Positions 44,935 through 62,816 of a stretch of DNA of 64,000 nt are shown here, one piece after another. The DNA is taken from IMG/VR virus record IMGVR_UViG_3300021376_000010. The stretch is one strand, 5' to 3'. Both the position numbers and the translations under genes were made by a program. The notes beneath the pieces were generated by a model. That model made no database searches, was not told the origin of the DNA, and was given only the letters and a program-made list of their open reading frames with translations. Source of the stretch: a virus. The number at the start of each line of letters is the position of its first letter. The stretch's first letter is position 1.

Positions 44935-45124
44935 TGATCAGAGTTTGCAGTTGATTGAAATCTTTACATTGTGCTGCTTGAATTGCTTTGGTGATGGAAT
45001 AAGTCACAAAACCACAACGTTCAGTCTTGGTTTCACACACAGCATAAACAGGTTGTTTCGTCTGAATGTCGAAAACAGTCTTAATCAGCATTGGTTGTTT
45101 GTTTATGTGGGACAGATGAAAGAT

Positions 45125-45298
45125 TTAGATGCGAGCAAGAGCATCTTTCTTTTGCTTCGGATTGGAAACTTTCTTCACCCAAGAAGATTTACGATGCGAT
45201 TGAATCTGCGAAGGAAGTTTTTGCTTACCCTGAACTTCATCAATCAGTTGAATGAAATGAATGAAGAATTGCTTTTCCATCCGTTGTGCAGCAGTCAT
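45125..45298 (-). CDS. Basic hypothetical protein (57 aa)
   Basis: Manually translated MTAAQRMEKQ..LARI; first gene after the 45361 promoter. Confidence 0.65.
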   Translation of the reverse strand: MTAAQRMEKQFFIHFIQLIDEVQGKQKLPSQIQSHRKSSWVKKVSNPKQKKDALARI

Positions 45299-45360
45299 CT
45301 TGATTCAAATAAAGAATTAGACTTAGGTGGGACAGTGCGACCTGCTCCCTCCACCCTCTT

Positions 45361-45417
45361 AATATAGCACCTTTTGGGGTCTGTGCTCTTTTAGTGTGCC
45401 ACTAGAACAAGTGGCAC
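45361..45417 (-). promoter_or_regulatory. Early promoter cassette
   Basis: GTGCCACTAGAACAAGTGGCAC (45396-45417), 29 bp, TGcTATATT. Confidence 0.8.
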
Positions 45418-45458
45418 ATCGCATAGTTGGACTCACATGAGTTGATGCTACCTTTGAA

Positions 45459-45713
45459 TCAAAGGTGAGAGAGAACTTTCATCATTGCAGAAACTTCTGC
45501 TTTTGTATTCCAACCCATTACATCTTCTGTCATATTACCATTCGGTCGGAAGATTGCAACCTCATAAGTATTCTCATTGATATTACCATACAAACCACAG
45601 TTCGGAGGACCAGCAACAACAGAAATACTCCAATCATTCTCAAACTTATGTCGTGCAGCAATCGCACCAGAAATACCATTCAGATGCGGTTGAAATTGAA
45701 GAAGGTCAAACAT
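45459..45713 (-). CDS. Hypothetical phage protein
   Basis: FENDWSISVV..GLYG..TYEVAIF motif seen in many phage early proteins. Confidence 0.7.
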   Translation of the reverse strand: MFDLLQFQPHLNGISGAIAARHKFENDWSISVVAGPPNCGLYGNINENTYEVAIFRPNGNMTEDVMGWNTKAEVSAMMKVLSHL

Positions 45714-45717
45714 TGTA

Positions 45718-46050
45718 TCAAACAAGTTGTTGGGACAGTGCATACTTAACAATCTCAGTGCGATTGTCTTTATATTGAATCAGCAAATCAATAATTGGTT
45801 TGTAATCATTTGGGTCTTGAATTTCTGGGTCACACTCATCATCGGCAAGTGCAGTAAAAATAGTTGCAATTTCAAAGTCCGACTCAAACAAATGCTCCCG
45901 ATGCTCGTCAATTAGTAGATAATCTTCAATAGCATTAGAACTCAGTTTCAGTGGAATGTCAGGACCAATCAAACCAAGAGTTGCAAGTCGTTCCAATGCA
46001 CCAACAACCCACATTACTTTACACTCACCAACAGACATTTGTGCGTTCAT
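45718..46050 (-). CDS. Hypothetical protein
   Basis: ORF track, start adjusted to ATG. Confidence 0.7.
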   Translation of the reverse strand: MNAQMSVGECKVMWVVGALERLATLGLIGPDIPLKLSSNAIEDYLLIDEHREHLFESDFEIATIFTALADDECDPEIQDPNDYKPIIDLLIQYKDNRTEIVKYALSQQLV

Positions 46051-46091
46051 TGTATCAAGAATCAAAGGGGAAAAAAGAAAGGGTGTTTAAC

Positions 46092-46766
46092 TCACACCCC
46101 ACAGAGTTGTTTAGTCACAGAACCAGATGCTTGACGGTTCAAAGAAACACCAGCACCAACATTGGAACCAGCATAAGCACCAGCACCGTTAGCACCATTC
46201 ATCTTCTTTGCACGTCCAAATCGCATCGTGGAGAGTTTGCTCTTCACTGCATCAGCATCATCATGCACTCGACCTTCTGCTTCTTTCATTTCACGCAGAC
46301 GTTCTGCAACCTTATCAGCAAATGCTTTACGGAAGTTCAATTTGAAACTGCGGGAAACAGTTTTACCAGTCAAATCTGCCATAACTTTTTCTGCTTTATG
46401 TGCAACATCTGCCTCTTTCTCCATCACCTGCACCAGGTAATCATAATAGAGACGCACTTGGATTTGTTGTGCTTCACTACCAATCACTTGCAGAGACTTA
46501 GTATCACCATTCTTCAGGTATGCCATTGCATCATAGAACTTTGCAATCGCATTAGCAATCGTAGTCAGAGCAACATTAGTTTTCTTGAAAGAGATAAAAG
46601 ACTCATCAAGAACTTGAGTTTCAGTTGCTTCAGAGATTGTTACACCATACTGCTTGCACAGTTTATCAATCATCTTAGCAGCAGCATCTGCTTCACCCTC
46701 AAAAGAAGTTCCATTCTGAAGTTTCAGGATGGATTGAATCTTTGCGATGACTTGCTGACGTTCCAT
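46092..46766 (-). CDS. DUF2786-domain protein (224 aa)
   Basis: N-terminal KIQSILKL..EGEADAAAKMIDKLCKQYG; C-terminal FRKAFA..V.ERL. Confidence 0.7.
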   Translation of the reverse strand: MERQQVIAKIQSILKLQNGTSFEGEADAAAKMIDKLCKQYGVTISEATETQVLDESFISFKKTNVALTTIANAIAKFYDAMAYLKNGDTKSLQVIGSEAQQIQVRLYYDYLVQVMEKEADVAHKAEKVMADLTGKTVSRSFKLNFRKAFADKVAERLREMKEAEGRVHDDADAVKSKLSTMRFGRAKKMNGANGAGAYAGSNVGAGVSLNRQASGSVTKQLCGV

Positions 46767-46815
46767 AATCAAATAAAGAATGGGACTCGGGTGGGACTGC
46801 TCCCTCCACCCTCTT

Positions 46816-46872
46816 AATCTACCAGAAAAAAGTTCCAGTGCTCTTTTAGTGTGCCACTAGAACAAGTGGCAC
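46816..46872 (-). promoter_or_regulatory. Early promoter cassette
   Basis: GTGCCACTAGAACAAGTGGCAC (46851-46872), 29 bp, TGgTAGATT. Confidence 0.8.
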
Positions 46873-47030
46873 GTCTCAACACTGGACTCACCGAGTTGTG
46901 CTGATAATGTCAGCAACAGTGTAAAGAGTATTTGCAGTTAGGTTTCTCACACTAGGAGAGAAAATAAATGCAACTGCAAAGATGAGAATTATAGTTTTCA
47001 TCTTATTTGGTGCCTTAAATGTTAATGTCT

Positions 47031-47252
47031 TCACTTATCAATCAGTTCGGTACGACCCTCATCCATCAAATCACCGAAAGCATACATCACATCTTTCTCA
47101 ATGCGAGCAAGATTATCTAAAGTCCAGTTATCCCAAATCTCATCATCACCATCATACAACTCTTCAATCCAATAGTGAAAGCAATTCACATCCCAGTTAT
47201 ACAGATTATTGAGTGCTTCACAGATAGCATCAGACAGTTCTGCTTGAGTCAT
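47031..47252 (-). CDS. Acidic hypothetical protein (73 aa)
   Basis: ORF track. Confidence 0.7.
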   Translation of the reverse strand: MTQAELSDAICEALNNLYNWDVNCFHYWIEELYDGDDEIWDNWTLDNLARIEKDVMYAFGDLMDEGRTELIDK

Positions 47253-47280
47253 TGTTTTACTTTAGTTGTGATGGAAAAAA

Positions 47281-47469
47281 TCAGGCACAGATGGAATAGA
47301 GTTTATCAAACTCGTATTCACCATCTTCACCCTCAACTGCCTGATAAACAATCACAGTTTCACCAGACAGTTCAACACTCCAATCAAGAGCATCTTCTTT
47401 GGCATTATCTACATCTTGATACCACTCAGCATCAATCAGGTCAAAAGAGACAGGGCAAGAAAGAAACAT
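47281..47469 (-). CDS. Acidic hypothetical protein (62 aa)
   Basis: ORF track, start adjusted to MFLSCP. Confidence 0.65.
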   Translation of the reverse strand: MFLSCPVSFDLIDAEWYQDVDNAKEDALDWSVELSGETVIVYQAVEGEDGEYEFDKLYSICA

Positions 47470-47563
47470 CGGAGTCAAAAACAAATGAATTAGTTTGATG
47501 GTGCAAGTGTGATACACCTCATCAGGATGTAACAGGGACTTGCACTCTATCGTTTCTATTTAA

Positions 47564-47767
47564 TCAGACTGCGGCAAGATAAGCAGCAATCTCATCATCA
47601 TTCTCGGGACAATCAGCAATTCCCAGGTCTTCACAAACTTGCTCACGAGTGAGTTCAGTTTGCTCAGGAACCAGAACATTCAGAATGTCAAGAATCTGAG
47701 TTCCAGTCTGCCCCTTGCGAAGCATACCGAGCATCACATCAGCAGAAAAAGTAGCAACAGCAGTCAT
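47564..47767 (-). CDS. Hypothetical protein (67 aa)
   Basis: ORF track; first gene after the 47880 promoter. Confidence 0.7.
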   Translation of the reverse strand: MTAVATFSADVMLGMLRKGQTGTQILDILNVLVPEQTELTREQVCEDLGIADCPENDDEIAAYLAAV

Positions 47768-47879
47768 TTTGATTAAGATAGAGTTTGAGTTGAAGTGATG
47801 AGGTTAGATAACAGCATACTTGCCAAGATGCCATTTGACGTTATCGAGGTGGTCTTATTGCCTCCCTCACCACCCCTAT

Positions 47880-47936
47880 ACAATACCACATTTTGGACCC
47901 CGTGCTCATTTACTGTGCCACTAGAACAAGTGGCAC
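47880..47936 (-). promoter_or_regulatory. Early promoter cassette
   Basis: GTGCCACTAGAACAAGTGGCAC (47915-47936), 29 bp, TGgTATTGT. Confidence 0.75.
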
Positions 47937-48201
47937 ATCGCATAGTTGGACTCGGTGAGAATGGATTTTGCTCGGAAGCACCAACCCCCTGAGTCCTATG
48001 CGGGACACATAATGAGACCGAGAAGAGTTTTTGTTTCTTCTCTGATTCTACCTGCAACCTAGGCACCCCTCCCCGCAGGATGCAGTCCCATTGCAGTCTC
48101 GTGTGAAACTGTTGATTTGGGATTTTTCCGCAATCTGGGGTTCAGGTGCCCTAGGTCATTGGCAGCAGTCTCATCGACGGTCTATCTGAAACTGTTGAGA
48201 A

Positions 48202-48387
48202 TCAGGCAGATTCCAGCAGTTCGGGATTGTATTCCTCAACTTCAGTGAGAAGTTCCTCATCAGTGTAGGCAGAAAGATTCTCTTTCAGAGAACTATAAAC
48301 AAAACACTCCATTGTTTTATAATCCATATTCTCAATGAGTGTTTGGATGTAGTCTTCAGTGAGTTGTGCGCGGTTAAAATCAGACAT
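48202..48387 (-). CDS. Acidic hypothetical protein (61 aa)
   Basis: ORF track. Confidence 0.7.
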   Translation of the reverse strand: MSDFNRAQLTEDYIQTLIENMDYKTMECFVYSSLKENLSAYTDEELLTEVEEYNPELLESA

Positions 48388-48388
48388 T

Positions 48389-48595
48389 TCAGTAGGATTC
48401 AGAAATTACAAGGTAATCAAGTGAATTGACACACCAACCAGTTTGGTCGGAAATCAAATCAGCAAGTTCATCTTCATTATCAACTTCAAAGACTTCACCA
48501 ATCACAGATTTAGCAACTGCAACCTGCTCATCATAGGGAAGTTCATCTTCCCCATCATAAAAGTCAAACTCAATGTCAGTTAGTTTCAGAAGCAT
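48389..48595 (-). CDS. Acidic hypothetical protein (68 aa)
   Basis: TDIEFDF..LADLISDQTGWCV motif. Confidence 0.75.
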   Translation of the reverse strand: MLLKLTDIEFDFYDGEDELPYDEQVAVAKSVIGEVFEVDNEDELADLISDQTGWCVNSLDYLVISESY

Positions 48596-48846
48596 TAGAC
48601 TGCACCATGGAAAGGATTGGCAAGTTGTGGAATCGTATTAAAATCTATAACTTCATAAGGAACATTATGATTGAGATACTCATTGATTTCTCTGTTCATC
48701 TCAACTTTATTGAGAAACTTCTTGGATTGACTTTGACCCATAAAGGTCAATACTTTCAAAAACCAAGTTTTAGAAACATCACCAAAAGGTGTTTTGATGG
48801 GGTAGAAATCTACCACCATATTACCATCGTTAGATTGAAGTTTCAT
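48595..48846 (-). CDS. Hypothetical protein (83 aa)
   Basis: ORF track; coupled start/stop. Confidence 0.7.
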   Translation of the reverse strand: MKLQSNDGNMVVDFYPIKTPFGDVSKTWFLKVLTFMGQSQSKKFLNKVEMNREINEYLNHNVPYEVIDFNTIPQLANPFHGAV

Positions 48847-48994
48847 CAGAAATCGTATTCGTAGGAGTTTGCAATTTCAATTGACTGAAGGATGTGTTCA
48901 TAATCCTTCTTTTCTTCCTCATTGAACTCGTATGCTTGTTGTTCCAAGCAATAGAGAATCAATTCAACTGCCTTGTCTTGAAGATAAAGTCGCA

Positions 48995-49390
48995 TCAGAA
49001 TTGAGTGTCGAACACAAAACCACCTTCATAAACGCAATCGAGATTCTCGAAACTTGCTTCCCAATCAATCTCCAGAAAACCAGGCATGTCCGTAGTATAA
49101 CAGTCATTCACAAAGTTTTCTACATATTCACCTTTAGAACTCCAAGCACCACGGTAGGAATCTTGGAAACCAGGAAGTTGGTCGAGACCATAATACTCAA
49201 CAAAAGCATCTACTGCTTCATAAGAATAATCCTCACCAAGTTCACAGTAATCTTCGTAGAACTTTACGAGGTTATCTTCACCGTGCTCACCGATGAACTC
49301 ATAAATGTCTTCGTCGGAATAGTTATTCTCAACAAGTTCTTTGATGAACTCAACAGTCGATTCTTTGAGATTCACTTCGATTGCAGGCAT
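48995..49390 (-). CDS. ArdA-like antirestriction (DNA-mimic) protein (131 aa)
   Basis: Very acidic; FQDSYRGAWSS..YVENFV..MPGFLEIDWEA resembles the ArdA C-terminal domain. Confidence 0.6.
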   Translation of the reverse strand: MPAIEVNLKESTVEFIKELVENNYSDEDIYEFIGEHGEDNLVKFYEDYCELGEDYSYEAVDAFVEYYGLDQLPGFQDSYRGAWSSKGEYVENFVNDCYTTDMPGFLEIDWEASFENLDCVYEGGFVFDTQF

Positions 49391-49418
49391 TGGGTCTCTC
49401 AACCTCGATTACTTTGTA

Positions 49419-49477
49419 ATGATAGCACCCTCAGCAGGGGTTTGGAGAGTGTAGTGTGCCACCTCTACAAGTGGCAC
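49419..49477 (-). promoter_or_regulatory. Early promoter cassette
   Basis: GTGCCACCTCTACAAGTGGCAC (49456-49477), 31 bp, TGcTATCAT. Confidence 0.8.
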
Positions 49478-49656
49478 AGTCTCACTCAAGACTCACTCAT
49501 CATACCAGTATTCATAATCTCTGATAATGTCATCTGGATGATTATACTTATCAGTCATACGGTCAATAAAGTCTTGAACTTCACCATCATCCAAATCGGC
49601 ATTAAAATAAATCGTGAGATTCACAGATTTATATTGAGTCACGGTCGTTTGTTCCA

Positions 49657-50049
49657 TTAAAATTGTTGTTCGATTAAATTAGAAAGTTCATTGAAAGTGT
49701 AACCCGAATCGTTTAGGTTGGCAATCTCATCGTGATAAAACCAATCATCCTCATCATTATCAGTTACATCCACTCGGACATTTGGATTGCCATGTGATAA
49801 TCCTGCCCAATCCCTAACTGAATCAGGAGTGAACTCACTTTGGTCATCAAAATACCAATAGTCCTGAGATTGAAGATTAGTTTCTGCAATACCCCTGAAC
49901 TCCCATTTAACATCGTGTTCTTGTGAATACAAATCGCACAGAACACCAAGGCAGCAATAACCACTCACACTGCGGAGTTTCTCACTGCCTTGCTCGTATT
50001 TACCAGAACGCAGAGCATCAATCCACTTTTGCTTAACTTCAGGATTCAT
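49657..50049 (-). CDS. Conserved phage hypothetical protein (130 aa)
   Basis: KWIDALRSGKYEQG..CCLGVLCD..LND.G.TF.E motif. Confidence 0.8.
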   Translation of the reverse strand: MNPEVKQKWIDALRSGKYEQGSEKLRSVSGYCCLGVLCDLYSQEHDVKWEFRGIAETNLQSQDYWYFDDQSEFTPDSVRDWAGLSHGNPNVRVDVTDNDEDDWFYHDEIANLNDSGYTFNELSNLIEQQF

Positions 50050-50232
50050 TTTAGTTTTCAACATCATTTACGTCCTCAAACCAAGTGTCGAGTGAATTAA
50101 AGATTTCAGTTACGATGCTATCAGTAATAGCATCAATGTGTGGATTCTCTACATGCTTAAAAGCACGATTGTATCCAAACCTTACACCTTCTTCGATTGC
50201 CATTTCAAGAACAGCACGGAATCTAGGTTTCA

Positions 50233-50439
50233 TCATAATACCTCCCAATCACATTCCCAAAAGTCATTGACATTTACCCAGAAGAAATATTTTTTATTCT
50301 CTGATGCGAGAAACAACATACCATCACCCTTGTCTTGCTCTACAATGCAAGTTGGGTTGTTATCCATTACATTGCAAAGTCTATTCTTTGCTTTCTTGGA
50401 TTTAGGTCTAACAATTACTTTGCGTGGATGCGACATCAA
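50233..50439 (-). CDS. Hypothetical protein (68 aa)
   Basis: V.PKSKKAKNR..FLAS.N.KYFFWV. Confidence 0.7.
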   Translation of the reverse strand: MMSHPRKVIVRPKSKKAKNRLCNVMDNNPTCIVEQDKGDGMLFLASENKKYFFWVNVNDFWECDWEVL

Positions 50440-50642
50440 TTTACAGCAAGGACAAGATTGGCAACTCGGTTCTCAGGAACAAACTCTTGCAACCTGTCAT
50501 AAACCTTTTGGAATTGAACTCCCAGATTCATGTAATAAGCAGCAAGATTGTGGTCTTCTGCAAGATACAGAGAATCTTCTTTCTCTTCAAGTGCAGAGAT
50601 AATGTCCAGCAACTCACCAGATGTAAAAGAGATTGAAGTCAT
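50436..50642 (-). CDS. Hypothetical protein (68 aa)
   Basis: ORF track; ATGA overlap. Confidence 0.7.
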   Translation of the reverse strand: MTSISFTSGELLDIISALEEKEDSLYLAEDHNLAAYYMNLGVQFQKVYDRLQEFVPENRVANLVLAVN

Positions 50643-50839
50643 TTGATGTCAAAGATGTCGAACAGTTCTCGTTGAGTTTTGGTGAACAAAGTATCTTCAG
50701 GAGGATACTCATAGAGTTCCAACTCAAACTCTTTGTAGAAATACATAATGTCCCGAAGAGCAGTCAGTTGCTTCTCAGTCAGGATTTCTTCAATCGTCAG
50801 CACAGTTTCAAGCATAGTTTCAGTAATCAGTTCCGTCAT
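50639..50839 (-). CDS. Acidic hypothetical protein (66 aa)
   Basis: ORF track, start adjusted. Confidence 0.65.
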   Translation of the reverse strand: MTELITETMLETVLTIEEILTEKQLTALRDIMYFYKEFELELYEYPPEDTLFTKTQRELFDIFDIK

Positions 50840-51007
50840 TTTCACATTCTTGAATCCAATAAGCATAGCACGGAAAGTTCAGAGGATGGTCTACATTCCG
50901 TTTATACCAATCAAATGCAAGTCGCACTCGATTCTCTGGCACCTGCAAATAAGGAATGTTTGTCAGATGCGGGGTGTAAGTCATTGGACTTCCTCAATCA
51001 TGAATCC

Positions 51008-51066
51008 ATAATACCCCAGAATCCCAGGCACCGCAACCGCATCTGTGCCACCCCTACAAGTGGCAC
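51008..51066 (-). promoter_or_regulatory. Early promoter cassette
   Basis: GTGCCACCCCTACAAGTGGCAC (51045-51066), 31 bp, TATTAT. Confidence 0.75.
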
Positions 51067-51073
51067 ACCAGGG

Positions 51074-51892
51074 TCAGTAAATCGCAATTAGTTCTTTAAC
51101 TTTTCCTCTTGATTCATTGCTCGCACCTACACTGCGAGTAACATCAACTTCAATAATCTTTCTTGCATCACAATAGAGTTCTCTTGCCCTCTCTACATCA
51201 TGATTGCTGATAATTACTTTTGCTCCTTGACTTTTTAGATACTTTGCAAGTTCAACTAATCGGATTTGGTCTGAATCAGTAAATCCCTCGGTGTGATAAT
51301 CTGTAAAATTAGATGTTTCACTCAATGGAATGTAAGGTGGGTCAAAATAAACAACAGTTTTATCATTGATGTTTTGATACAACTTCATTTCAGAGAAATC
51401 AAGAGAGTGCATGTATAGTTGATTCTTCTCTCTCATTGTGTTGGTGAAGTTAATCATCTCAATCCTTGGGAAAGTCACACTCTTATACTTTCCGAAAGGA
51501 ACATTATACTTACCTTGTTTGTTGTATCGAGTCAATCCATTGAAACTGTGTTTGTTCAGATAGACAAACAATGCAGACTTCTCTCTTTTGTCTGTAGTTT
51601 CATTGAACAGTTCTCGATTTCTATAGAAAACTACTTCATCATTTCCTTCAATGAAGTATGACTCACAATAATCAACAAAGTCTTTTCCTTCAGAAATTAA
51701 ATGTTGATAAATCTGAATCAAATCACTATTTGCATCATTGATAACAATGACTGGGCAATCTACAATGTTCAGTGATACACTTGCTGCACCACTGAACGGT
51801 TCAATAAATTGAGTTGGATACCCAATAATAGGAATAAGTTGGGGCAGCAGTCTAAACTTACCACCTGCCCACTTTAGAAAAGGTTTATTCAT
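51074..51892 (-). CDS. dam: Dam-like DNA adenine methyltransferase (D12 class)
   Basis: FLKWAGGK, FIEPFSG, IND.N, FNGLTRYN..G.YNVPFG, YFDPPY, IISNH. Confidence 0.93.
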   Translation of the reverse strand: MNKPFLKWAGGKFRLLPQLIPIIGYPTQFIEPFSGAASVSLNIVDCPVIVINDANSDLIQIYQHLISEGKDFVDYCESYFIEGNDEVVFYRNRELFNETTDKREKSALFVYLNKHSFNGLTRYNKQGKYNVPFGKYKSVTFPRIEMINFTNTMREKNQLYMHSLDFSEMKLYQNINDKTVVYFDPPYIPLSETSNFTDYHTEGFTDSDQIRLVELAKYLKSQGAKVIISNHDVERARELYCDARKIIEVDVTRSVGASNESRGKVKELIAIY

Positions 51893-51898
51893 TAAAAA

Positions 51899-52492
51899 TC
51901 ATACGATAGTTTTACCGAACTGAGTGCAAAGATAAAATGCCATGTTTTTATCTTTCAGTTGCTTACCATTATAGCACAGAGGCACATAATAACCTTGCTT
52001 AGTTTTAGATGCTTTTGTGCGAATCTGAAGGAGTTTGTTAGGACCAGTAATCGTAGTCAGTTCCTTACCATTGGCATAACGATTGCGAATTTCATTACAA
52101 ATGTATTCATAATCTTCTGCAAGATGAACAAAATGAGTGGGGCAACTATCAAAGTTCATAACAGCAGTTCCAATGTAATCATTAGAACGTGTGAAACCAA
52201 CGTAGATAGTTTGAGCAAGTTTTTGTCCTACCTTGCTATCATAAAAACCCACTTGCTCATCAATAATTTCTTCAAGACAATGCTTAATTTGAGTTATAGC
52301 AATGCTCTCACCTTGAGTAAAAGTTTTGAGTTCACCATCAATCAAATCAGTCAGGGCAGAACTATTAAGAATACCCAGAGCATTTTCAATCAGTTGACCA
52401 CGGGCACCCTTATTCTTGCCAGGTTTATCAAATGCTGTGAAGTCAGTAACTTTCAGTTTAGCAGCAACTTGATTTGTGGACAGTTTGGGCAT
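51899..52492 (-). CDS. MutH/Sau3AI-family PD-(D/E)xK endonuclease (197 aa)
   Basis: NKGARGQLIE..LG, D....ELKT catalytic motif, LQIRTKA and AFYL match MutH/Sau3AI blocks. ATG at 52492 lies downstream of a promoter. Confidence 0.75.
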   Translation of the reverse strand: MPKLSTNQVAAKLKVTDFTAFDKPGKNKGARGQLIENALGILNSSALTDLIDGELKTFTQGESIAITQIKHCLEEIIDEQVGFYDSKVGQKLAQTIYVGFTRSNDYIGTAVMNFDSCPTHFVHLAEDYEYICNEIRNRYANGKELTTITGPNKLLQIRTKASKTKQGYYVPLCYNGKQLKDKNMAFYLCTQFGKTIV

Positions 52493-52513
52493 GTGTTCTT
52501 TGTGTGTGAATAC

Positions 52514-52571
52514 ACTGTAACCGATACAGGTGCAGAAGTCAAGGGGTTTGTGCCACAAGTTCAACTGGCAC
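52514..52571 (-). promoter_or_regulatory. Early promoter cassette driving the nuclease-dam operon
   Basis: GTGCCAG-N8-GTGGCAC, 7 bp, TTGACT-17-TACAGT. Confidence 0.8.
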
Positions 52572-52586
52572 ATGGACTCACAAGAC

Positions 52587-53107: not shown

Positions 53108-54343
53108 TTAGGCAGCAAGCACTTCACCCTTCACAAAGATGGTATCAACCACAGTCTGAAGTTGACGGGCAATCCTATCACCATAGTTGTTGTTGACAGG
53201 AATAGTGATAGTGCCAAAGGGTTTCTTATAGAAAGCAAACTCACCTGCTTTCATCTTACCTTCTGCGATTGCTTGTCTGTCATCACGGTGCATACGAATC
53301 ACACGACCAACAGTTTGTGCCATTTCAATTAGAGGAAGATTGCGAAGCATAATGCAATGAGTCAGACCGTGAACATTCATACCTTCAGACAAGATGCTGT
53401 AGTGAAACACAATGAACTTCTTGTCAGGGTCAGCACCAAACTCATTCATCTTCTCAAAGAAGACTTCACGAGACACTTTCTGTTTGTCAATATAAGCACC
53501 GTGCTTAGAAGTGATGTGCATAATAGTGTAACCCATCTCATTGAGTTGTTGCAGCAAATCACTTTCAGTGAACATTGCCCAAATTACTTTAGTGCTCGGT
53601 GCAGCAACAAGAACTTTAGGTGCATCACAATCAGAAATACCTGACAGAATCCCTACAATGTTCTCTGCATCTACAAAAGGTGCATTTTCCTTAGTGCGAA
53701 TGGTTTGTGCTTCATAAGGCACAACACGAGGAGGAATAATACTGCCTGCCTCGATGAGTTCTTGTGCAGGAATACTGATGATATTATTGCCATACACATC
53801 AGTATTATTCATCGACTCCTTACTGTTATTGAACTTAGGAGTTGCAGTAAAGAAATAAGCATTATCTGCAACTGCTGAAGTGTGTGCGATACCTACAAAG
53901 TTAGAAGGTTTCACACAGTGGTGTGCTTCATCGAAATACACAACATCAATGTTAATGTCTGCTTCATTCACCCGACCAATCGAATTGTAAGTGGTAAAGA
54001 TAAACTGATGCTTGCCACTTCCGATTGCTGTGTCATTGTATTCTGCAATGACAGATGGACGTGTAGAGGATTGATGATGAGTTTCACCACTATGAACGTG
54101 CATATAAGCAACGTTTTGCTCTTTGAGATATTCTTCGAACTCCGAACAGAGTTGATTTGCAAGCAGGATTCGAGGTGCAACAACAACAAACGTCATCGGT
54201 TCTTTTGCATTAAGAACACGTTGACGGGCATCTTCCATCATCACAACAGTCTTCCCACCACCAGTAGGAATATACACAGAACCCCTGATTGCTTTTTGCA
54301 CAGCATCAAGAGCACGTTGTTGATAAGGAAGAAGAGTCAGCAT
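53108..54343 (-). CDS. SF2 DEAD/ResIII-like helicase (411 aa)
   Basis: PTGGGKT, DEAHH, FTAT, LSEG, QTVGRVIR. Confidence 0.9.
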   Translation of the reverse strand: MLTLLPYQQRALDAVQKAIRGSVYIPTGGGKTVVMMEDARQRVLNAKEPMTFVVVAPRILLANQLCSEFEEYLKEQNVAYMHVHSGETHHQSSTRPSVIAEYNDTAIGSGKHQFIFTTYNSIGRVNEADINIDVVYFDEAHHCVKPSNFVGIAHTSAVADNAYFFTATPKFNNSKESMNNTDVYGNNIISIPAQELIEAGSIIPPRVVPYEAQTIRTKENAPFVDAENIVGILSGISDCDAPKVLVAAPSTKVIWAMFTESDLLQQLNEMGYTIMHITSKHGAYIDKQKVSREVFFEKMNEFGADPDKKFIVFHYSILSEGMNVHGLTHCIMLRNLPLIEMAQTVGRVIRMHRDDRQAIAEGKMKAGEFAFYKKPFGTITIPVNNNYGDRIARQLQTVVDTIFVKGEVLAA

Positions 54344-54373
54344 CAATAGGTCAGGTCACGTTTGTATTCATAC

Positions 54374-56117: not shown

Positions 56118-56150
56118 CTGTCAATTAAACAACTTCTTTAATTTATACAA

Positions 56151-56357
56151 TCATTCAACATTACAATCTGGATGCCAACCTGCCTGCCTCTCGCACCAAG
56201 TCTTTAGAGAATTGCTTGGTGGATACTTCAACCGTTCAATGCCTACTGCTTTATCATAAGCATCAAACATTTTTTTATCACGTTGAATAATAAAGGAGTT
56301 CCATAAAAGAACTGCAATAAATGCGAGAAAAATGTAAGCAGTAGTTTTAGAGTTCAT
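56151..56357 (-). CDS. Small membrane-anchored hypothetical protein (68 aa)
   Basis: N-terminal hydrophobic helix; C-terminal C..WHPDC. Confidence 0.65.
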   Translation of the reverse strand: MNSKTTAYIFLAFIAVLLWNSFIIQRDKKMFDAYDKAVGIERLKYPPSNSLKTWCERQAGWHPDCNVE

Positions 56358-56764: not shown

Positions 56765-57082
56765 CCGTTGTTTAACTCGTTTGTAATGACTTCAATTCGT
56801 TTGATTTTCTCAGTGAGAGATTTGATTTTAGAAACTATAAAATCATAATCATCTTGTGTTTTACCCATCAGTGCCTCATCAATTCTTTCAAAGGCAGCAG
56901 CAGTTTGTATGGTCAGTTTCATTATTCAGTTGTTCCTACACTTACATCTGGTTCAGAATCATCATACTCAAGGATTGCTTCTCCCGCATCATGATTCAGT
57001 TGCTCGTAAATGCTTTCATAAATCCAATCGCAAGAGGGTTGGTCATCCTCCAGGACAAGTTTAACAGTGATAGTAACTTCTT

Positions 57083-57349
57083 TCATTTTTTGATAGTTTT
57101 CTTGATTTTTAGACGGGCAATTTCATCATCAATAATCTCACCGATTTGCTCGTAAATGTAATCGGTGTTTCCTACCTCATAAAGAACTTCACAAACATCT
57201 TCATCGGGAAGATAGATTTCATCATTGTTTTCATCCATCTCGAATACATCAGCAGGACTGAAAACAAATGCAGCAACGTAGGCATCTTCACCATAAGTTG
57301 CAATCAGGTCATCAACCCGTTGTTTTAGGTCAGCAAGGTTACGATACAT
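57083..57349 (-). CDS. Acidic hypothetical protein (88 aa)
   Basis: ORF track; similar to 43809-44105. Confidence 0.75.
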   Translation of the reverse strand: MYRNLADLKQRVDDLIATYGEDAYVAAFVFSPADVFEMDENNDEIYLPDEDVCEVLYEVGNTDYIYEQIGEIIDDEIARLKIKKTIKK

Positions 57350-57670
57350 AATCAGAAGGAAATGTAAGGGTGCTCGGGGTCAAGGACATCAACAGTTTTA
57401 TCTGTGAAATGAAAACCATTCATCGGATAAAACTCATCATCACCCATGTCATAGATTGTCACATCCATCTTCAACTGCTCCAGAGTGAGAGTCTGAAGAA
57501 TCTCCAGAAGATTTTGATAAGTCATTTAATTACTTCGAGTTTGCGTTTAATGTGCTGAAGTGCTTGTTTTCTTGCTTTGAGTTTCCCTTTGCAAGAACCT
57601 TTAGTGTTCTTTTGCTTGCCAGAGTTATGCTGCCAATTCGGTGTCATTCCTCCCCTTTGCTTGTCTCCAT

Positions 57671-57728
57671 AGTATAACACCCCTCCCAAGCAAATGGAAG
57701 GGGTGATGGACAGTGCAACAAGTGGCAC
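57671..57728 (-). promoter_or_regulatory. Early promoter cassette
   Basis: TGGACAG-N8-GTGGCAC (57707-57728), 30 bp, TGtTATACT. Confidence 0.75.
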
Positions 57729-57890
57729 ACTGACTATTTTTTGAGAGACCTATTTTCTAACCCATTTACACCCATTCCTTTCTTAATCATTTTCATCATT
57801 GCTTCTTGTGCAGATTCAAGATTAAAGTAGCAAGCAAACTTAGTTTCACCCATAAGTTCATACTCTACAGTATAAAACTCATCATCGAGT

Positions 57891-58367
57891 TTAGGCATAA
57901 GAGTATTCTTTCCATTCAGGAACATTCGACCTATCCAGAGAGAATAACATCTTATTGATTGGTTTTCTTGGAACAGATTGAAGAACTAAATTAGTATCTT
58001 CAAGAAGTTTATCACTCTTTTTAGTATTGCAAGGCATACAAGCAACAACTAGATTCTCCCAAGTATCTTGTCCACCACGGGAACGAGGAATAATGTGGTC
58101 AATGGTAAGTTCTTTTGTTGAACCACAATACTGACACTTGTGACCATCACGTTTGTAAATCATTGTCCTTGATGGTTTGTTTTGTGCGAGTTTCTCATAC
58201 GGCAACTTAATGTAATTAACCAGACGGATAACTCTTTTGCCAAGTGCCTGTGCCTTATTCTTCATAAGCAGCACAATTGCTCTCTTCCAATTAGTGAAGT
58301 TGATTGGTTCGTAAGATGCGTTTAGAACAAGTATTGTTTGATTTGGTTCAATTTGTAAGTAGTCCAT
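57891..58367 (-). CDS. HNH endonuclease (McrA-like family, 158 aa)
   Basis: LVLNASYEP, RDGHKCQYCG, LTIDHIIPRSRGG..WENLV.AC..CN..K. Confidence 0.9.
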   Translation of the reverse strand: MDYLQIEPNQTILVLNASYEPINFTNWKRAIVLLMKNKAQALGKRVIRLVNYIKLPYEKLAQNKPSRTMIYKRDGHKCQYCGSTKELTIDHIIPRSRGGQDTWENLVVACMPCNTKKSDKLLEDTNLVLQSVPRKPINKMLFSLDRSNVPEWKEYSYA

Positions 58368-58416
58368 CGACCTATTGAGTGTTTAGTAAGTGGGGAGATT
58401 CTACCTCCCCTTATAT

Positions 58417-59187
58417 CTAGATGTCAAAGAACAAATCTGGATTGCATCCAGTATTTTGACCAGGATAACCACCAGGATTACAAACCACTCGGCAACCTTC
58501 AATCATATAATCAAAAGCATTGTGAGTATGTCCGTGAACCCAGTATTTGATTTGAGGATGATTTAGAATGAGAGTATCAAGATTACTACAATAAGCACCA
58601 TTTGCATTCTTTTTGTATTCCTGAGGAATCGACTGATAACTTGGTGCGTGATGACTGATGACAAATACGTTTTCATTCAGTGTTTGTAGTTGATTCAACA
58701 GATACTTCTTACTGTCCTTATGGAAATTAAGAGTATCAGTTGGATTCAGTTTCCGATACTTTGGAGTGATACGAATAACTTTGTAGTCATTCATACACTG
58801 TGCTGCTTCCATCATCTCTAGAGCATTTTCATTTCTAAAGTCAGTCCAGAGAGTGAAACCTATAAAGTTCCAGTCTCCAATCTTAACTGTGTCATTATCA
58901 AGGATTTGAAAATTATTAGGAAGATGCTCTTTTATTTTTTTCTTACTTCCTTCGTAATTGTATCCATAGTATTCGTGATTTCCAAATACATAAAGAACTT
59001 TATCATAGTTCTTGCTGCAATCATCCAAGAATCTATCATAGACTGCGTGGATATAACCATTAGTCTTGAAATGCTTGGCATTAAGAATATCACCAGCAAG
59101 AACTAGAACATCACCCTCACCAACAGGATACACCTGACAGGCAGTAAAATGCTCCAGGTGTAAATCACTAAGAACTTTGAGTTTCAT
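58417..59187 (-). CDS. Calcineurin-like metallophosphoesterase (256 aa)
   Basis: SDLH, AGD, GNHE, SHH.P, HGHTH motifs. Confidence 0.92.
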   Translation of the reverse strand: MKLKVLSDLHLEHFTACQVYPVGEGDVLVLAGDILNAKHFKTNGYIHAVYDRFLDDCSKNYDKVLYVFGNHEYYGYNYEGSKKKIKEHLPNNFQILDNDTVKIGDWNFIGFTLWTDFRNENALEMMEAAQCMNDYKVIRITPKYRKLNPTDTLNFHKDSKKYLLNQLQTLNENVFVISHHAPSYQSIPQEYKKNANGAYCSNLDTLILNHPQIKYWVHGHTHNAFDYMIEGCRVVCNPGGYPGQNTGCNPDLFFDI

Positions 59188-59202
59188 GATAAGAAGGAAT
59201 AA

Positions 59203-59276
59203 CGTCTCAGGTAGGATTCGAACCTACGACTAACCGCTTAGAAGGCGGATACTCTTGTCCACTGAGTTACTGAGAC
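59203..59276 (-). tRNA. tRNA-Arg (anticodon TCT)
   Basis: GTCTCAG/CTGAGAC acceptor stem, anticodon arm CCGC-CTTCTAA-GCGG, T-loop GGTTCGAATCC; CCA not encoded. Confidence 0.95.
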
Positions 59277-59280
59277 ATAA

Positions 59281-59370
59281 ACCTCCAGGTTTGTGCATTG
59301 TTAAGAGGCATAGGAGGTGTGGGTCTTACTCAAAGTTTGGACCTTTGATGCCCGTAAGAATTAACCGTGA
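59281..59370 (-). ncRNA. Putative structured RNA immediately 5' of tRNA-Arg
   Basis: Stems CTTAC/GTAAG, TCAAAG/CTTTGA and ACCTCC/GGAGGT; possible GGG/CCC pseudoknot. Confidence 0.45.
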
Positions 59371-59372
59371 AA

Positions 59373-59516
59373 TTAAGCACCTACAGGATGCTCAACTTCG
59401 ATTTCATCTTCGTCACCGAGACCAAGTTGAAGATTTACATAATCTTCATAATCAACACCGAGAAACTTCTGTGCGAAGTCCTCGTAGTCATCGTGAAGAA
59501 TACAAGTGTCAATCAT
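59373..59516 (-). CDS. Acidic hypothetical protein (47 aa)
   Basis: Manually translated MIDTCILHDDYEDFAQKFLG..; strong AGGAGG RBS. Confidence 0.7.
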   Translation of the reverse strand: MIDTCILHDDYEDFAQKFLGVDYEDYVNLQLGLGDEDEIEVEHPVGA

Positions 59517-59544
59517 CTTGAAACCTCCTTGACTTGATGAATAC

Positions 59545-59602
59545 ATCATAGCAGATGTGGGGGCATCTGTAAAGTGTTATGTTCCAGAAGGATTAGTGGC
59601 AC
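59545..59602 (-). promoter_or_regulatory. Early promoter cassette upstream of the small ORF and tRNA
   Basis: Palindrome variant at 59581-59602, 7 bp, TTTACA-17-TATGAT. Confidence 0.75.
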
Positions 59603-59766
59603 AAGGGTATCAAACGTCATACCACTTGTATTCATTGAAGTGTTCCCTATAAAAGAACTCATCAATTTCATTGTCAACATCATTCAAGAGTTGATTGTAG
59701 TGTTTCATCCCTTGAGTGCAAACAAGTTCAAGAACCTCAAAGTTTTTTTGACAATAACCATAGGTA

Positions 59767-60033
59767 TCAGGTTTTAGCATTGTCTTCGAGTTCGACTCCG
59801 AATCGTTGGAGGACATAAGGGAAACATTCAGCACATTCTTGAATGATGTAATCTTCTTGGTTATCATCACATTGCTTATGCAAGTCTTGAAGAAGACTAT
59901 CTGCATAAGAACGGATAATATCCTTCGGGTCCATTGAATCAATTACTTCATCAACAAACTCTTGAAGGAAGTTATCCCTAACTGTTGTATTTTCGACTAA
60001 TTCGTTTGCAAATTCACTAGCAGTTTTTGCCAT
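59767..60033 (-). CDS. Acidic hypothetical protein (88 aa)
   Basis: ORF track, start adjusted to MAKTAS. Confidence 0.7.
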   Translation of the reverse strand: MAKTASEFANELVENTTVRDNFLQEFVDEVIDSMDPKDIIRSYADSLLQDLHKQCDDNQEDYIIQECAECFPYVLQRFGVELEDNAKT

Positions 60034-60034
60034 G

Positions 60035-60265
60035 TCAATAAGATTCAATTTCCGCAAGTTTCTTTTGTTGACGCAATTCTTTGACAATCATCTGAAGTTC
60101 AGAGATGTCTTCATTTAGAATTGTAAGGTCATCATACATCATCTCTGCTTGATAAGCACTCCTACACTTTTTGTATTGCTTTGAGAGTTTATCGAACTTT
60201 TTCTTTGCTTCCTTGAGGTCTTTCTCATACTCGGGAAGTGTTTTTTCGAATTGTTGATAATTCAT
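60035..60265 (-). CDS. Coiled-coil hypothetical protein (76 aa)
   Basis: ORF track. Confidence 0.7.
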   Translation of the reverse strand: MNYQQFEKTLPEYEKDLKEAKKKFDKLSKQYKKCRSAYQAEMMYDDLTILNEDISELQMIVKELRQQKKLAEIESY

Positions 60266-60405
60266 TTGCGATAAGGACTAGACCAGTAAGAACGAAAAAC
60301 GGAATAAACAATAACAACAGTGCTGATAACACCAACCAAACCAATAAGGGTAATGGCATCACCTGTAAATTGATAAGTACCTGTAAATTGATAAGTTTCG
60401 GGCAT
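60262..60405 (-). CDS. Small single-pass membrane protein (47 aa) with a duplicated TYQFTG
   Basis: Manually translated MPETYQFTGTYQFTGDAITLIGLVGVISTVVIVYSVFRSYWSSPYRK; GAGGT RBS. Confidence 0.7.
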   Translation of the reverse strand: MPETYQFTGTYQFTGDAITLIGLVGVISTVVIVYSVFRSYWSSPYRK

Positions 60406-60428
60406 AACCTCGATTTGTTTACCTTGTA

Positions 60429-60486
60429 ATCATAGCACCTTTAGGGTGCGGAATCAAGTATAAATGGACGGTCCAAAAACCGTCCA
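60429..60486 (-). promoter_or_regulatory. Early promoter cassette
   Basis: TGGACGG-N8-CCGTCCA (60465-60486), 7 bp, TTGATT-17-TATGAT. Confidence 0.75.
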
Positions 60487-60703
60487 TCGTTATACATATG
60501 TATTTAATCAACCAACCACTTTTAAGGAGTAGGGTCAAAGTAAACAATTTCTTCCAGCATTGGAAGAATCTCGTATTGAATATCATCAAGATGTTGACTC
60601 ATAATAGTCATATCCATCTCATGAAGTTTGTTCTCACGTTCCACAAGTTCAGTTAGAATCTTGTAGGCACGTTCAACTTCTGCGTAAGCATAAACAGTAG
60701 TTC

Positions 60704-60967
60704 TCACCACTCACCTCGTTGAATCAGAATCTTTTTGATTTCATTGAAGATAAACTTCTTCAGTTTTGCATCATTGGTTGCCACATAGGCACAGTGAAGA
60801 CGTTGCAAATAATCTTTTTGAGTGTTGACTTTAACTACCTTTACATTAGTCACACCAAGGTCACGCATCGGGGAACCTGCTTTTACTTTAGCACGTCCGA
60901 AGTTCCCAGACACAACACCTTGAGTGCGAAGTTTGGGTTTGATTTTGGAGAGATTGGAGTCGGTCAT
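60704..60967 (-). CDS. Basic hypothetical protein (87 aa)
   Basis: SNLSKIKPKLRTQG..GNFGR.KVKAGS. Confidence 0.7.
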   Translation of the reverse strand: MTDSNLSKIKPKLRTQGVVSGNFGRAKVKAGSPMRDLGVTNVKVVKVNTQKDYLQRLHCAYVATNDAKLKKFIFNEIKKILIQRGEW

Positions 60968-60988
60968 TACCCTTTTGAGGATGCTCTT

Positions 60989-61047
60989 ATTATAGGGGAA
61001 ACACCGACCCAATGGGAGGGGTGCTGTGCCAGTTCCACAAGTGTCAG
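60989..61047 (-). promoter_or_regulatory. Early promoter cassette
   Basis: GTGCCAG-N8-GTGTCAG (61026-61047), 31 bp, TATAAT. Confidence 0.7.
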
Positions 61048-61476
61048 TCGGTGGTTAAATGACGATACTGAAGTTTATCCATATAATGATAAATGGTGTT
61101 GTCGTCATAAAACTCATAGAATCTTTGCGGATTCTTTTCTTTCATCTTTGTGAGCATGTTTATCCACTGATAATCACAATCAATCTCATATCCAATGTGT
61201 CTTTCATTCATTTTTATTTCTCTCGTCTAGATAATCAAATACAGGTGAATAAAGAACAAAGAAGAACCAAGCAAAAGAAGCAGAAATAATTAGAAAATAA
61301 ATCATCGTTTCAACAAAGTAAGTTGACGTTTGAGTTCAATTTCAATTGGAATTAAGTGAGATACAAAAAATTTCTCATATTCATTCCCCTCAACAATCTT
61401 TGAGAGATTGTCAATCTGAATAAGAGCAAGAGTAAACTTAGTTTGTTTGTCCATTGGGTGTTTGTTTCATTAACCC

Positions 61477-61534
61477 ATTATAGGGCATCCAAGTCTCCAC
61501 CGTGCCTCTCAGTGGACAGTTCATATGCTGGTTC
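61477..61534 (-). promoter_or_regulatory. Early promoter cassette overlapping the 3' end of ORF 61478-61684
   Basis: Degenerate palindrome at 61513-61534, 30 bp, TATAAT. Confidence 0.65.
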
Positions 61535-61684
61535 AACATATCCAATTTTTGCATCTGCAAAAAAATTGTTTAGGATTTCATCGCAGATTTGATATTTTTT
61601 ACTGCTAAGTGAAGCAAAGGACATTTGATAATGACGCACTGCATCATAGATTACTTTTTTGTGTTCTTTGGAAAGTTCACTCAT
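61478..61684 (-). CDS. Hypothetical protein (68 aa), tandem paralog of 61681-61842
   Basis: LSKE..IYDAVRHYQ..C.EIL. Confidence 0.7.
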   Translation of the reverse strand: MSELSKEHKKVIYDAVRHYQMSFASLSSKKYQICDEILNNFFADAKIGYVEPAYELSTERHGGDLDAL

Positions 61685-61842
61685 CGCACTTGCTCTCTCT
61701 TTTGAGTATAAGTTAAATCAAACAAAGTAGTCAGAATATCAACGCAATCATTATATAATTTTATATCTTGAATATTATTATGTTGATATTTACGAACAGC
61801 AGCAACAACGATTTCTAATTGTTCTTTAGATAGATTATTCAT
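61681..61842 (-). CDS. Hypothetical protein (53 aa)
   Basis: Manually translated MNNLSKEQLEIVVAAVRKYQ..DCVDIL.. Confidence 0.65.
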   Translation of the reverse strand: MNNLSKEQLEIVVAAVRKYQHNNIQDIKLYNDCVDILTTLFDLTYTQKREQVR

Positions 61843-62561
61843 TTTATGCAACTCACACTAATCTGAATGTTCTTAAATGCTTCTGACATTTGACGATAAC
61901 CTGCACCAATATAAATTTGCCCACCAACTACAGCAACTGCCATAGCACCCCAAAAGATATAATACCAACGAGATTTAATTTGGTGTTTCTTGTTCTTCAT
62001 TTTTCAGTTTATCAAGATGGTCGGAAATTGCTTTAATAAAATCTTCTTCGGTCCAAGTATTAAACATAGACTCTTGTGGGTCATTTTCATCCCAAGAAAT
62101 TGTGAATGAACCATCAGTTTCTTCTTTTACTTCAATCATTTTTCATACACGGGTCGAGTGTTGTTGCAATGTAAAAAGTAATGATACTCAGCAAGAGGAC
62201 CATATTTCCATTCTACTATATCACATCCTTTGTAGGTGTCAACTACTTTTGCACTTCTTGGAATATCCTTCGCAGTTTTTGTCGTTGACCAATAGACATC
62301 ATCAATCCACTGTCTCATCCGAGTAATTAACATAAAGATTGTCCCCACCAATGTTTAGATGAAAAATTTGCCCGTTATTAAGATAGATTCCCAACCATAC
62401 AGCACGACCTTCTTCCATCGTCTCATAATGAACCATCTTTACATCTTCCAGAACAATCTCGTCTGGGTTTTTAGTCCACCGTGTCATTTCAATACCTCAT
62501 CAACATCAATACCATCAGGTAATTCATCCATAAACAGTATAGCAGTTATACTATTTAACAT

Positions 62562-62816
62562 TCAATAATGATCGATATCCTCACAAGGGACTCGTTCCCA
62601 TTCAGTCCAGGTTCTAACATATCCAGAACGATACCTGTTACCTGGGACATATTCCTCGTGATGAACCCTGACATTACACATCGGAATATAACGTATGTGG
62701 CGTGGATAATAGTGATGATGGCTTTCAACTCTAAATGGTTCCCAGAACTCTTTCCAAGTAATTGCCTGTGCTGGAAGAGAGAGGAAGGGTAGAAGAAGAA
62801 AAGGTAGGAATTTCAT
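62562..62816 (-). CDS. Putative secreted/periplasmic small protein (84 aa)
   Basis: Signal peptide MKFLPFLLLPFLSLPAQA; C..EEYVPG..GYV..VPC. Confidence 0.7.
   Translation of the reverse strand: MKFLPFLLLPFLSLPAQAITWKEFWEPFRVESHHHYYPRHIRYIPMCNVRVHHEEYVPGNRYRSGYVRTWTEWERVPCEDIDHY

Follow-up and report, generated by a model that had tools for sequence, protein, structure and literature searches.

The 64,000-nucleotide stretch of viral DNA analysed here (IMG/VR virus record IMGVR_UViG_3300021376_000010; the window, in what follows) comes from a T4-like cyanomyovirus (Kyanoviridae), and the block of small genes that it carries directly upstream of the baseplate genes gp25-gp6 has been cleared of short words of the restriction-site type. 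We show that GATC and RGCY, the latter widened to VGCB, are lost from this block, that CCGG is absent and GTAC nearly so, and that CATG, AATT, ATAT and TTAA are lost in part. The explanation that we favour, with moderate confidence, is a continuing selection against restriction-type words, strongest in an early module that is exchanged horizontally. The block extends over at least 20 kb in the window and over ~34-36 kb in G002, an uncultured IMG/VR relative of 77.7 kb with ~90% nucleotide identity to the window and a gp6 protein 98% identical. For comparison we also used two complete uncultured IMG/VR relatives, G001 (250.6 kb; gp6 77%) and G003 (247.1 kb; gp6 69%), and the cultured phage S-SSM7 (232,878 bp).

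The most conspicuous loss is that of GATC, which has sites at 44936 and 62570 and none in the interval 44940..62569 between them. In 500 codon-preserving shuffles, in which synonymous codons were permuted within the 53 minus-strand open reading frames (ORFs) of the block such that amino-acid sequence and codon usage were kept, this interval received 53.5±5.4 sites and never fewer than 37 (z -9.9); the window gene set comprised homology-supported minus-strand ORFs, and a codon-usage gene caller separated genes poorly. Paired figures such as 0/53.5 denote observed/expected (O/E) counts, the expectation for the window being that of the codon-preserving shuffle. Other expectations are higher still, at 61 by base composition, 77 by dinucleotide and 87 by trinucleotide Markov models. 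Direct counting thus agrees with the original prediction, which had noted an interval without GATC where composition calls for several dozen and in which GATT, GATG and GATA (134, 71 and 88 by our count) are abundant. The remainder of the window holds 69 GATC in 44.9 kb, a density that predicts ~27 in the desert (probability of zero ~1e-12). GATC had also been described as regular in the structural region, and 65 sites do occur in 1-43800, but the shuffle places 132±8 there, a ~2-fold depletion, so that GATC depletion is unequal across the window rather than confined to the block. Likewise, the supposed confinement of the desert to 17.6 kb does not hold, because this length hinges on two isolated sites and on the window end: GATC 62570 lies in an 84-aa ORF (62562..62816, minus strand) that has no homologue in G001, G002 or G003, GATC 62824 stands 8 bp outside the same ORF, and in the ~90%-identical G002 the desert spans at least 36 kb, with only two GATC (45284 and 67644) from 41.6 kb to the contig end at 77.7 kb.

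Other words follow the same regional pattern. From 43822 to the window end at 64000 there is neither AGCT nor any other RGCY word, GC being written almost only within TGC or GCA, and GTAC is sparse; the last AGCT stands at 43821 and the last GGCC at 40457, with none from 40458 onward, and CCGG is absent throughout the window. GTAC retains four sites within 44940-62569, the only four between 44140 and 63467, and two more past 63.4 kb. All but 3 of the 582 GC dinucleotides of the block have the form TGCN or NGCA. VGCB, which comprises nine words, occurs 3 times against ~314 by base composition and, inside genes, once against 165 in the shuffle; in 1-43800 these words make up 50 of 928 GC dinucleotides, against ~530 by base composition. 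Compared with the codon-preserving shuffle, the block gives 0/101 for RGCY (z -13.1), 1/165 for VGCB (z -17.8), 4/40 for GTAC (z -7.0) and 0/53 for AGCT, and AATT, ATAT and TTAA fall to z -6.5 to -7.8. For the backbone the corresponding ratios are 65/132 (GATC), 22/160 (RGCY) and 63/132 (GTAC), and the three AT palindromes are not depleted there. CATG is partly depleted in the window block and not in the window backbone; the G003 backbone, for its part, is CATG-depleted. These figures show that the words are selected against outside the block too, at least 10-fold less completely. Under-representation beyond that accounted for by composition, codon use and amino-acid sequence is the mark by which restriction-site avoidance is recognised, and it is found here.

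The nature of the avoided words argues for a target in double-stranded DNA. On the coding strand the most depleted words are palindromes or orientation pairs that are equally low (GGCT/AGCC and AGCG/CGCT), raw counts are symmetric, and the block has an excess of the one-step neighbours GATT, GATG, TGCT and AGCA. The palindromic TGCA, although low by Markov expectation, is not depleted under the codon-preserving shuffle. Since AGCC/GGCT and AGCG/CGCT are equally low while TGCA is not, we take specific double-stranded words to be the target. A cause at the level of RNA, such as the avoidance of an mRNA word to escape an RNase, was rejected, because both orientations of non-palindromic words are equally depleted, and the abundance of TGCT in the block similarly disposes of the GCT primase site of T4-type phages. 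Nor is this a generic aversion to palindromes: AGCT, RGCY, GGCC, GTAC, AATT, ATAT and TTAA do share the regional pattern of GATC, but TGCA is spared in shuffles and the non-palindromic AGCC/GGCT and AGCG/CGCT are lost. We know of no enzyme with a VGCB-type specificity. S-SSM7 avoids the RGCY subset only, VGCB avoidance being a widened set in the window lineage. As for CCGG, the 232,878 bp of S-SSM7 contain no copy and the 250.6 kb of G001 a single one, and G003 keeps ~50.

The two-tier arrangement recurs in relatives with differing sets of words. We surveyed 61 loci of at least 8 kb around orthologues of the marker gene of the block, a superfamily-2 helicase (ResIII/DEAD) encoded at 53108..54346 on the minus strand. 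In these loci the O/E of RGCY has a median of 0.03 and a maximum of 0.18, and that of VGCB ranges over 0-0.27, while GATC varies over 0-1.12, GTAC over 0.05-0.55 and CATG over 0.03-1.37. Avoidance of RGCY in the block is universal in this phage group, and that of the other words is lineage-specific. S-SSM7 is near expectation for GATC genome-wide (1081 vs 1323 expected), and AGCT is missing for 28.6 kb (23121-51677) of its syntenic region upstream of gp25, where the RGCY count is 10/235 vs 737/1968 elsewhere and the edge at ~51 kb is sharp. In G001 the O/E of GATC is ~0.25 genome-wide, with ~10 sites in the final 43 kb and a complete VGCB desert at 229.8-249.1 kb. RGCY and VGCB are almost gone from 40.7 to ~75 kb in G002, whose distal block again consists of small ORFs and ends near genes for a peptide deformylase and a 2OG-Fe(II) oxygenase. 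In G003 the backbone has a GATC O/E of ~1, against ~0.2 over ~45 kb of block, and RGCY and VGCB are at zero at 231-245 kb and 1-10.5 kb. The early block is thus purged while the rest keeps sites in the window, G002, G001, G003 and S-SSM7 alike. Searches of G001, G002, G003 and S-SSM7 for genes of the families PF00145 and PF01555 found neither, that is, no C5 or N4/N6 cytosine methyltransferase, and RGCY is accordingly handled by avoidance alone; the earlier suggestion that methylation interferes with early transcription cannot, for the same reason, account for the purge of RGCY and VGCB. G003 shows one departure of its own: at ~160-190 kb (loci L109-L110) GTAC reaches 2-5 times expectation (87 vs 18 and 62 vs 17 per 5 kb at 180-190 kb), the genome elsewhere being GTAC-poor, and this stretch may be a repeat-rich gene.

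Comparison of orthologous positions indicates that sites have been removed in place. Helicase orthologues contain 0-6 GATC, by lineage, and, in 63 loci, 0-1 RGCY. At the columns orthologous to 480 GATC occurrences in relatives, which are not independent of one another, the window retains 7%, whereas control words are retained at 55%; the retained GATC all flank the desert and none lies within it. In place of the lost sites stand one-step neighbours such as GACC, GATT and GAAC, and also GACA and AATC. The proposed region-specific selection against GATC is borne out by this difference in retention, but not its restriction to GATC, given that other words share the regional pattern; to that extent the equal depletion of all palindromes, which the original prediction had named as refuting it, is partly observed. 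Similarly, the backbones of the window and G002 (92% identity) share fractions of 0.46 of GATC, 0.36 of GTAC, 0.21 of RGCY and 0.25 of VGCB sites, against 0.55-0.76 for control words, and because the shared fractions lie below those of the controls the leftover backbone sites are short-lived. The two blocks, at 87% identity, have not a single GATC or RGCY site in common. The backbone is under the same selection as the block, less effectively.

One question then is why the block should be so much the cleaner part. In the explanation that we favour, it would have to escape cutting and stay open to transcription by the host polymerase during the first minutes of an infection, a critical period that would end once products of the block itself (the ArdA-like protein, Dam and others) blunt the host nucleases, and a cut or a bound nuclease within it would be far costlier than elsewhere. 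The block could then be regarded as the functional counterpart of T5 first-step-transfer DNA or of the T7 leading region, and a module moving among backbones and hosts would be expected to accumulate the union of the words avoided in each. In T5-like and T7-like phages restriction sites matter in the first-entering early DNA only (PMC10644984, PMC12455610). Among the methylated motifs reported from marine myovirus-like genomes, moreover, RGCY, which carries m4C, is the most frequent (PMC8919816), and this shows it to be subject there to pressure from defence and counter-defence. Of the causes originally offered, early exposure to host restriction is the best general idea left, although nothing in it singles out GATC and no physical basis for it is known in T4-type phages.

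Several considerations weigh against this explanation. T4-type phages use headful packaging, and their DNA is held to have permuted ends and to enter the cell fast, so that there is no established reason for a cut outside the block to do less harm; nor, to our knowledge, do they deliver their DNA in order. Hundreds of GATC and RGCY sites persist in the backbones (217 GATC in G001), and a classical 4-bp cutter would thus still destroy the genome. The desert of S-SSM7 extends into a 7-kb gene annotated as tail fibre (RGCY 11/68) and does not, therefore, consist purely of small early genes. The early expression of the block is suggested by promoter-like cassettes and small ORFs only, and a generic sigma-70 promoter scan gives 71 matches vs 59±8.5 in shuffles, which is barely higher. 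Module ancestry together with a higher recombination rate, which makes weak selection more efficient, could yield part of the contrast without a special vulnerability of the block.

The contribution of ancestry can be read from the genes themselves. All 11 early genes with homologues in both complete relatives are nearer to G003 than to G001 (helicase 93 vs 76%, HNH 91 vs 66%) and the metallophosphoesterase occurs, of these two, in G003 only (94%), whereas the backbone genes are nearer to G001 in six cases out of seven (gp6 77 vs 69%, gp8-like 84 vs 70%); GC content is 0.387 in the block vs 0.332 outside, and G003 shows the same shift. By this gene-by-gene comparison the block is shown to have the character of a semi-autonomous module that phage lineages exchange, and the repeated promoter cassettes could mediate its shuffling. 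It could be argued that nothing more is needed, the block stemming from a circulating gene pool purged elsewhere and the contrast being historical, with no extra selection in the present genome. Exchange can indeed explain the GATC-poor block of G003 in a GATC-neutral genome, as well as a CATG depletion that is seen in the window block, is missing in the window backbone and is present in the G003 backbone. Yet ancestry alone does not account for the greater purging of block than of backbone within each of the four genomes examined, with no equally purged donor backbone found; orthologous genes, besides, differ by substitution at the sites themselves, and the window and G002 blocks fail to share any. 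We regard a purely historical contrast as unlikely. The earlier proposal that the module was imported from a GATC-avoiding lineage is supported in part, by the discordant phylogeny and the differing GC content; against it, every backbone sampled is less depleted than the block it accompanies, and sites have visibly been purged in place. A polar or two-step entry of the DNA, with preferred genome ends and an early block that enters first and alone exposes its sites before counter-defence, as in T5 and T7, would produce the contrast directly. The pattern matches that of such phages (PMC10644984, PMC12455610), and in G003 the O/E of GATC is ~1 in the backbone vs ~0.2 in the block. The gp25-proximal edge is sharp; DnaA boxes and repeats lie there in the window, G002 and G001, as they do at the border between the first and second transferred segments of T5, and each of the six contigs >100 kb has an end no more than ~25 kb from the block. 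T4-type terminases are generally held to be headful, however, and cyanomyovirus genomes are reported to be circularly permuted; gp16/gp17 are present in S-SSM7. Deserts without a DnaA-box cluster occur in G003 and S-SSM7, and the edges differ by word (AGCT ends at 43821, GATC at 44936). Contig ends fall at differing positions, at the block edge in G001 and inside the block in G003, and where they cluster they do so loosely, at a promoter cassette at ~55.3-56.0 kb and not at one base, resembling assembly breaks at repeats. A fixed genome terminus is unsupported by ends scattered in this manner over 55.3-56.0 kb and elsewhere, and polar entry is, in our estimate, distinctly unlikely. The wider proposition, that headful-packaging T4-like cyanomyoviruses possess a functional equivalent of T5 first-step-transfer DNA in a 20-45-kb early module that is exposed, or matters, first, also strikes us as doubtful. 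If it were true, entry would be ordered or of limited permutation, or some other position-dependent protection would operate, only the sites of the module being strongly selected against, and the purged word set would report the restriction specificities of the hosts.

The original prediction had set a Dam and MutH-like pair at the centre of the desert, and both genes are present. The product of 51074..51892 (minus strand) belongs to the Dam-type N6-adenine DNA methyltransferases (Pfam PF02086, E 6.6e-56) and matches E. coli Dam (2g1p, E 1.9e-56) and DpnM (2dpm, E 1.4e-43) over its full length with the DPPY motif aligned; by these matches it is an orthodox Dam, of predicted GATC specificity. 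The 224-aa product of 51899..52573 (minus strand) is a predicted single-domain nuclease of the MutH/Sau3AI type. Its AlphaFold model (pLDDT 79) finds as best Foldseek matches the MutH structures 2aoq, 2aor and 2azo (E 2e-6 to 7e-6, probability 1.0, TM ~0.5), followed by Sau3AI (4pxg and 7xm0), and the residues D76/D79, E81-L-K83, R185-T-K187-A-S and F213-Y214-L215, invariant in 23 homologues, align with ELK, RPKGA and FYL of H. influenzae MutH, where they presumably have the catalytic, recognition-loop and F-Y-L roles generally assigned in MutH. No Pfam family is matched at E<=0.01, and a profile compared with PDB MutH gives E 0.47 only, so that membership of the MutH family rests on fold and motifs, which support the predicted identity. 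There are 858 metagenomic homologues, some of them labelled MutH by JGI, and as the homologues measure ~197 aa the true start is probably ~27 codons downstream. The two genes are co-oriented, 7 nt apart, behind one operator cassette, and a GATC specificity common to nuclease and methyltransferase is putative. In G002 (49616-50334) Dam is 95% identical to that of the window and the MutH-like protein just 55%, matching in two pieces, so that an allele may have been swapped, or a frameshift acquired, in a cassette that is conserved in other respects.

Among the causes originally offered was protection of this DNA from the phage's own nuclease: an early MutH-like enzyme would nick or cut un- or hemimethylated GATC, and the surrounding block would have lost its GATC while Dam catches up. 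The fold, the motifs and the close coupling of the pair are as this would have it, all four loci that carry both genes are strongly GATC-poor (O/E 0.05-0.12), and S-SSM7, with neither gene, has a GATC O/E of 0.82. The comparison of relatives with and without the pair nevertheless goes the other way, for the complete relative G003 lacks the nuclease, has a distant D12 enzyme only in place of a close Dam, and still shows the regional depletion. Ten further loci are GATC-poor without the pair within 20 kb, and the more distant carriers of the MutH-like gene (L013-L019, of which L015-L019 are without an adjacent Dam) keep 19-39 GATC around it. In G002, moreover, the pair is close to an end of the desert and not at its centre, and the co-extensive purge of RGCY, GTAC and AT palindromes would be left unexplained. 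The pair is, on these grounds, not the cause of the desert but an optional passenger, associated with the deepest GATC depletion and neither necessary nor sufficient for it, and self-protection is very unlikely. A last alternative dispenses with ordered entry and yet allows a region-specific cost: cassettes may lose cut sites in order that the nucleases of a competitor in co-infection cannot trigger their replacement by gene conversion, as in the marker exclusion of T-even phages, conversion in conserved backbone genes being harmless. The block is where cassettes are shuffled and gene content varies, and it encodes phage nucleases itself (MutH-like and HNH), but no RGCY-specific phage nuclease was identified, and the conserved helicase is purged too. 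We consider this highly improbable.

Besides the Dam, MutH-like and helicase genes, the block contains ~55 small ORFs, genes for an HNH endonuclease (57891..58367, minus strand; Pfam PF01844, E 2e-17), a calcineurin-like metallophosphoesterase (58417..59187, minus strand; Pfam PF00149, E 2e-11), a DUF7717 protein and an ArdA-like candidate, and a tRNA-Arg(TCT) (59202..59277, minus strand). The ArdA-like candidate anti-restriction protein (48995..49402, minus strand) matches phrog_36653, 'anti-restriction protein', at E 2.4e-20, and Pfam ArdA at just E 0.009, under the curated cut-off. Immediately 5' of the tRNA, and adjoining it, is an Rfam match to abiF RNA (59281-59317, minus strand) with a score of 49.8 bits against a gathering cut-off of 37. 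A 22-bp palindromic operator, GTGCCAC-N8-GTGGCAC, lies at 45396..45417, ~30 bp upstream of a -10 box, with further copies at 46851, 47915, 49456, 51045, 52550, 55865 and 59581 and a weaker one at 61026. Across the whole window, copies with at most two mismatches occur at 45.4-59.6 kb only, or at 45.4-61.0 kb with the weaker copy included. The same operator has nine copies in S-SSM7 (42982-51052) and two in G001 (241177 and 244740), within their deserts, and is thus conserved among phages with gp6 just 60% identical. The block is, by this arrangement, a putative regulon in which host-type -10 promoters are paired with a palindromic operator. Its gp25-proximal edge is marked by four TTTTCCACA DnaA boxes at 43146..43209, in a stretch of ~1 kb without confident genes (short ORFs of 45-50 codons only), and similar clusters lie at 40294-40347 in G002 and 247693-248223 in G001. 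No such cluster was found in G003 or S-SSM7, both with deserts, and DnaA boxes were accordingly rejected as a universal border of the block.

In the window as a whole the long ORFs are all on the minus strand and include T4-type baseplate wedge proteins and giant virion proteins. The baseplate wedge genes gp6 and gp25 mark where the late structural backbone starts. The gp6 protein (37696-39582, minus strand; phrog_219, E 4e-199) is 60-63% identical to its counterparts in the Synechococcus phages S-SCSM2R, Sf-FS3 and S-SSM7 (Kyanoviridae); gp25 (39582-39983, minus strand) is, over its full length, 50% identical to the S-SSM7 stretch annotated gp25, and a gp8-like baseplate wedge protein is encoded at 18621-20195. 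Between the block and gp25 a 250-aa phrog_1574 protein (41467-42219, minus strand) is 81-89% identical across four compared genomes and far more conserved than neighbouring genes. At the DNA level the window has no near relative among cultured phages: megablast of the block against them gives a single match of 159 nt (window 62314-62472), to a hypothetical gene found in Synechococcus phage S-RIM8 and in KBS-M-1A, with 83% identity. ARAGORN calls a tRNA-Ile(GAT) at 28545-28633 (minus strand), inside an 876-aa tail-fibre-like ORF (27182-29812), which Rfam does not confirm and which is probably a false positive.

Among known systems the nearest is the first-step-transfer (pre-early) DNA of T5 and other Tequintavirus phages, as summarised from Davison & Brunel 1979 in PMC10644984. 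In so far as that summary describes it, this DNA resembles the block in comprising small early genes, anti-defence genes among them, in which sites are absent or decisive while they are tolerated elsewhere, and in being bordered, as in the window, by a repeat-rich stretch with DnaA boxes. T5 differs from our T4-type phage, for which there is no evidence of fixed ends, in its fixed genome end and two-step injection, and its segment measures ~8-10 kb vs 20-36 kb for the block; also unlike T5, the DnaA boxes are missing in two relatives with a desert and the backbone is partly purged as well. The leading region of T7-like Autographiviridae (PMC12455610) is, like the block, highly variable and rich in anti-defence genes, and there the position of a motif and not its number decides restriction sensitivity, but the motifs are those of Type I systems and entry from a fixed end is driven by transcription, whereas the block, in a myovirus, has lost 4-bp Type II-like words. 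With the genome-wide avoidance of palindromes in phages (Rusinov et al. 2018, PMC6286503) our case has in common short words below composition and codon expectation in lineage-specific sets; it differs in having two tiers in one genome, a sharp edge and a degenerate, partly non-palindromic RGCY/VGCB set. Two-tier avoidance has been explained experimentally only in phages with ordered entry (T5 and T7-like), and here it is conserved in T4-type cyanophages with lineage-specific words, which implies either an unrecognised position-dependent vulnerability in these phages or an early accessory module under a selective regime of its own. In practice it could allow the early anti-defence block to be recognised, from sequence only, in large phages that have not been cultured, and RGCY, GATC, GTAC, CATG and CCGG are probably words targeted by picocyanobacterial defences, which fits the RGCY methylation reported in marine myoviruses. 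In T4-type phages, Arbiol and colleagues reportedly described (2010) modular shuffling together with promoter-early stem-loop (PeSL) cassettes. These regions are alike in that repeated cassettes of promoter and palindrome bracket small early genes in a hyperplastic region open to module exchange, and they are not known to be linked to the purging of restriction words. Finally, the MutH-like nuclease and its adjoining orthodox Dam resemble the MutH/Sau3AI and Dam/DpnII-type systems in fold, in the D..E-x-K signature and in the recognition-loop motifs; unlike the MutH systems, the nuclease is a phage-borne single domain, with no MutS/MutL partners in view, and is sporadic among relatives without tracking the desert, such that even a conspicuous pair of this type inside a desert can be a passenger rather than a cause.

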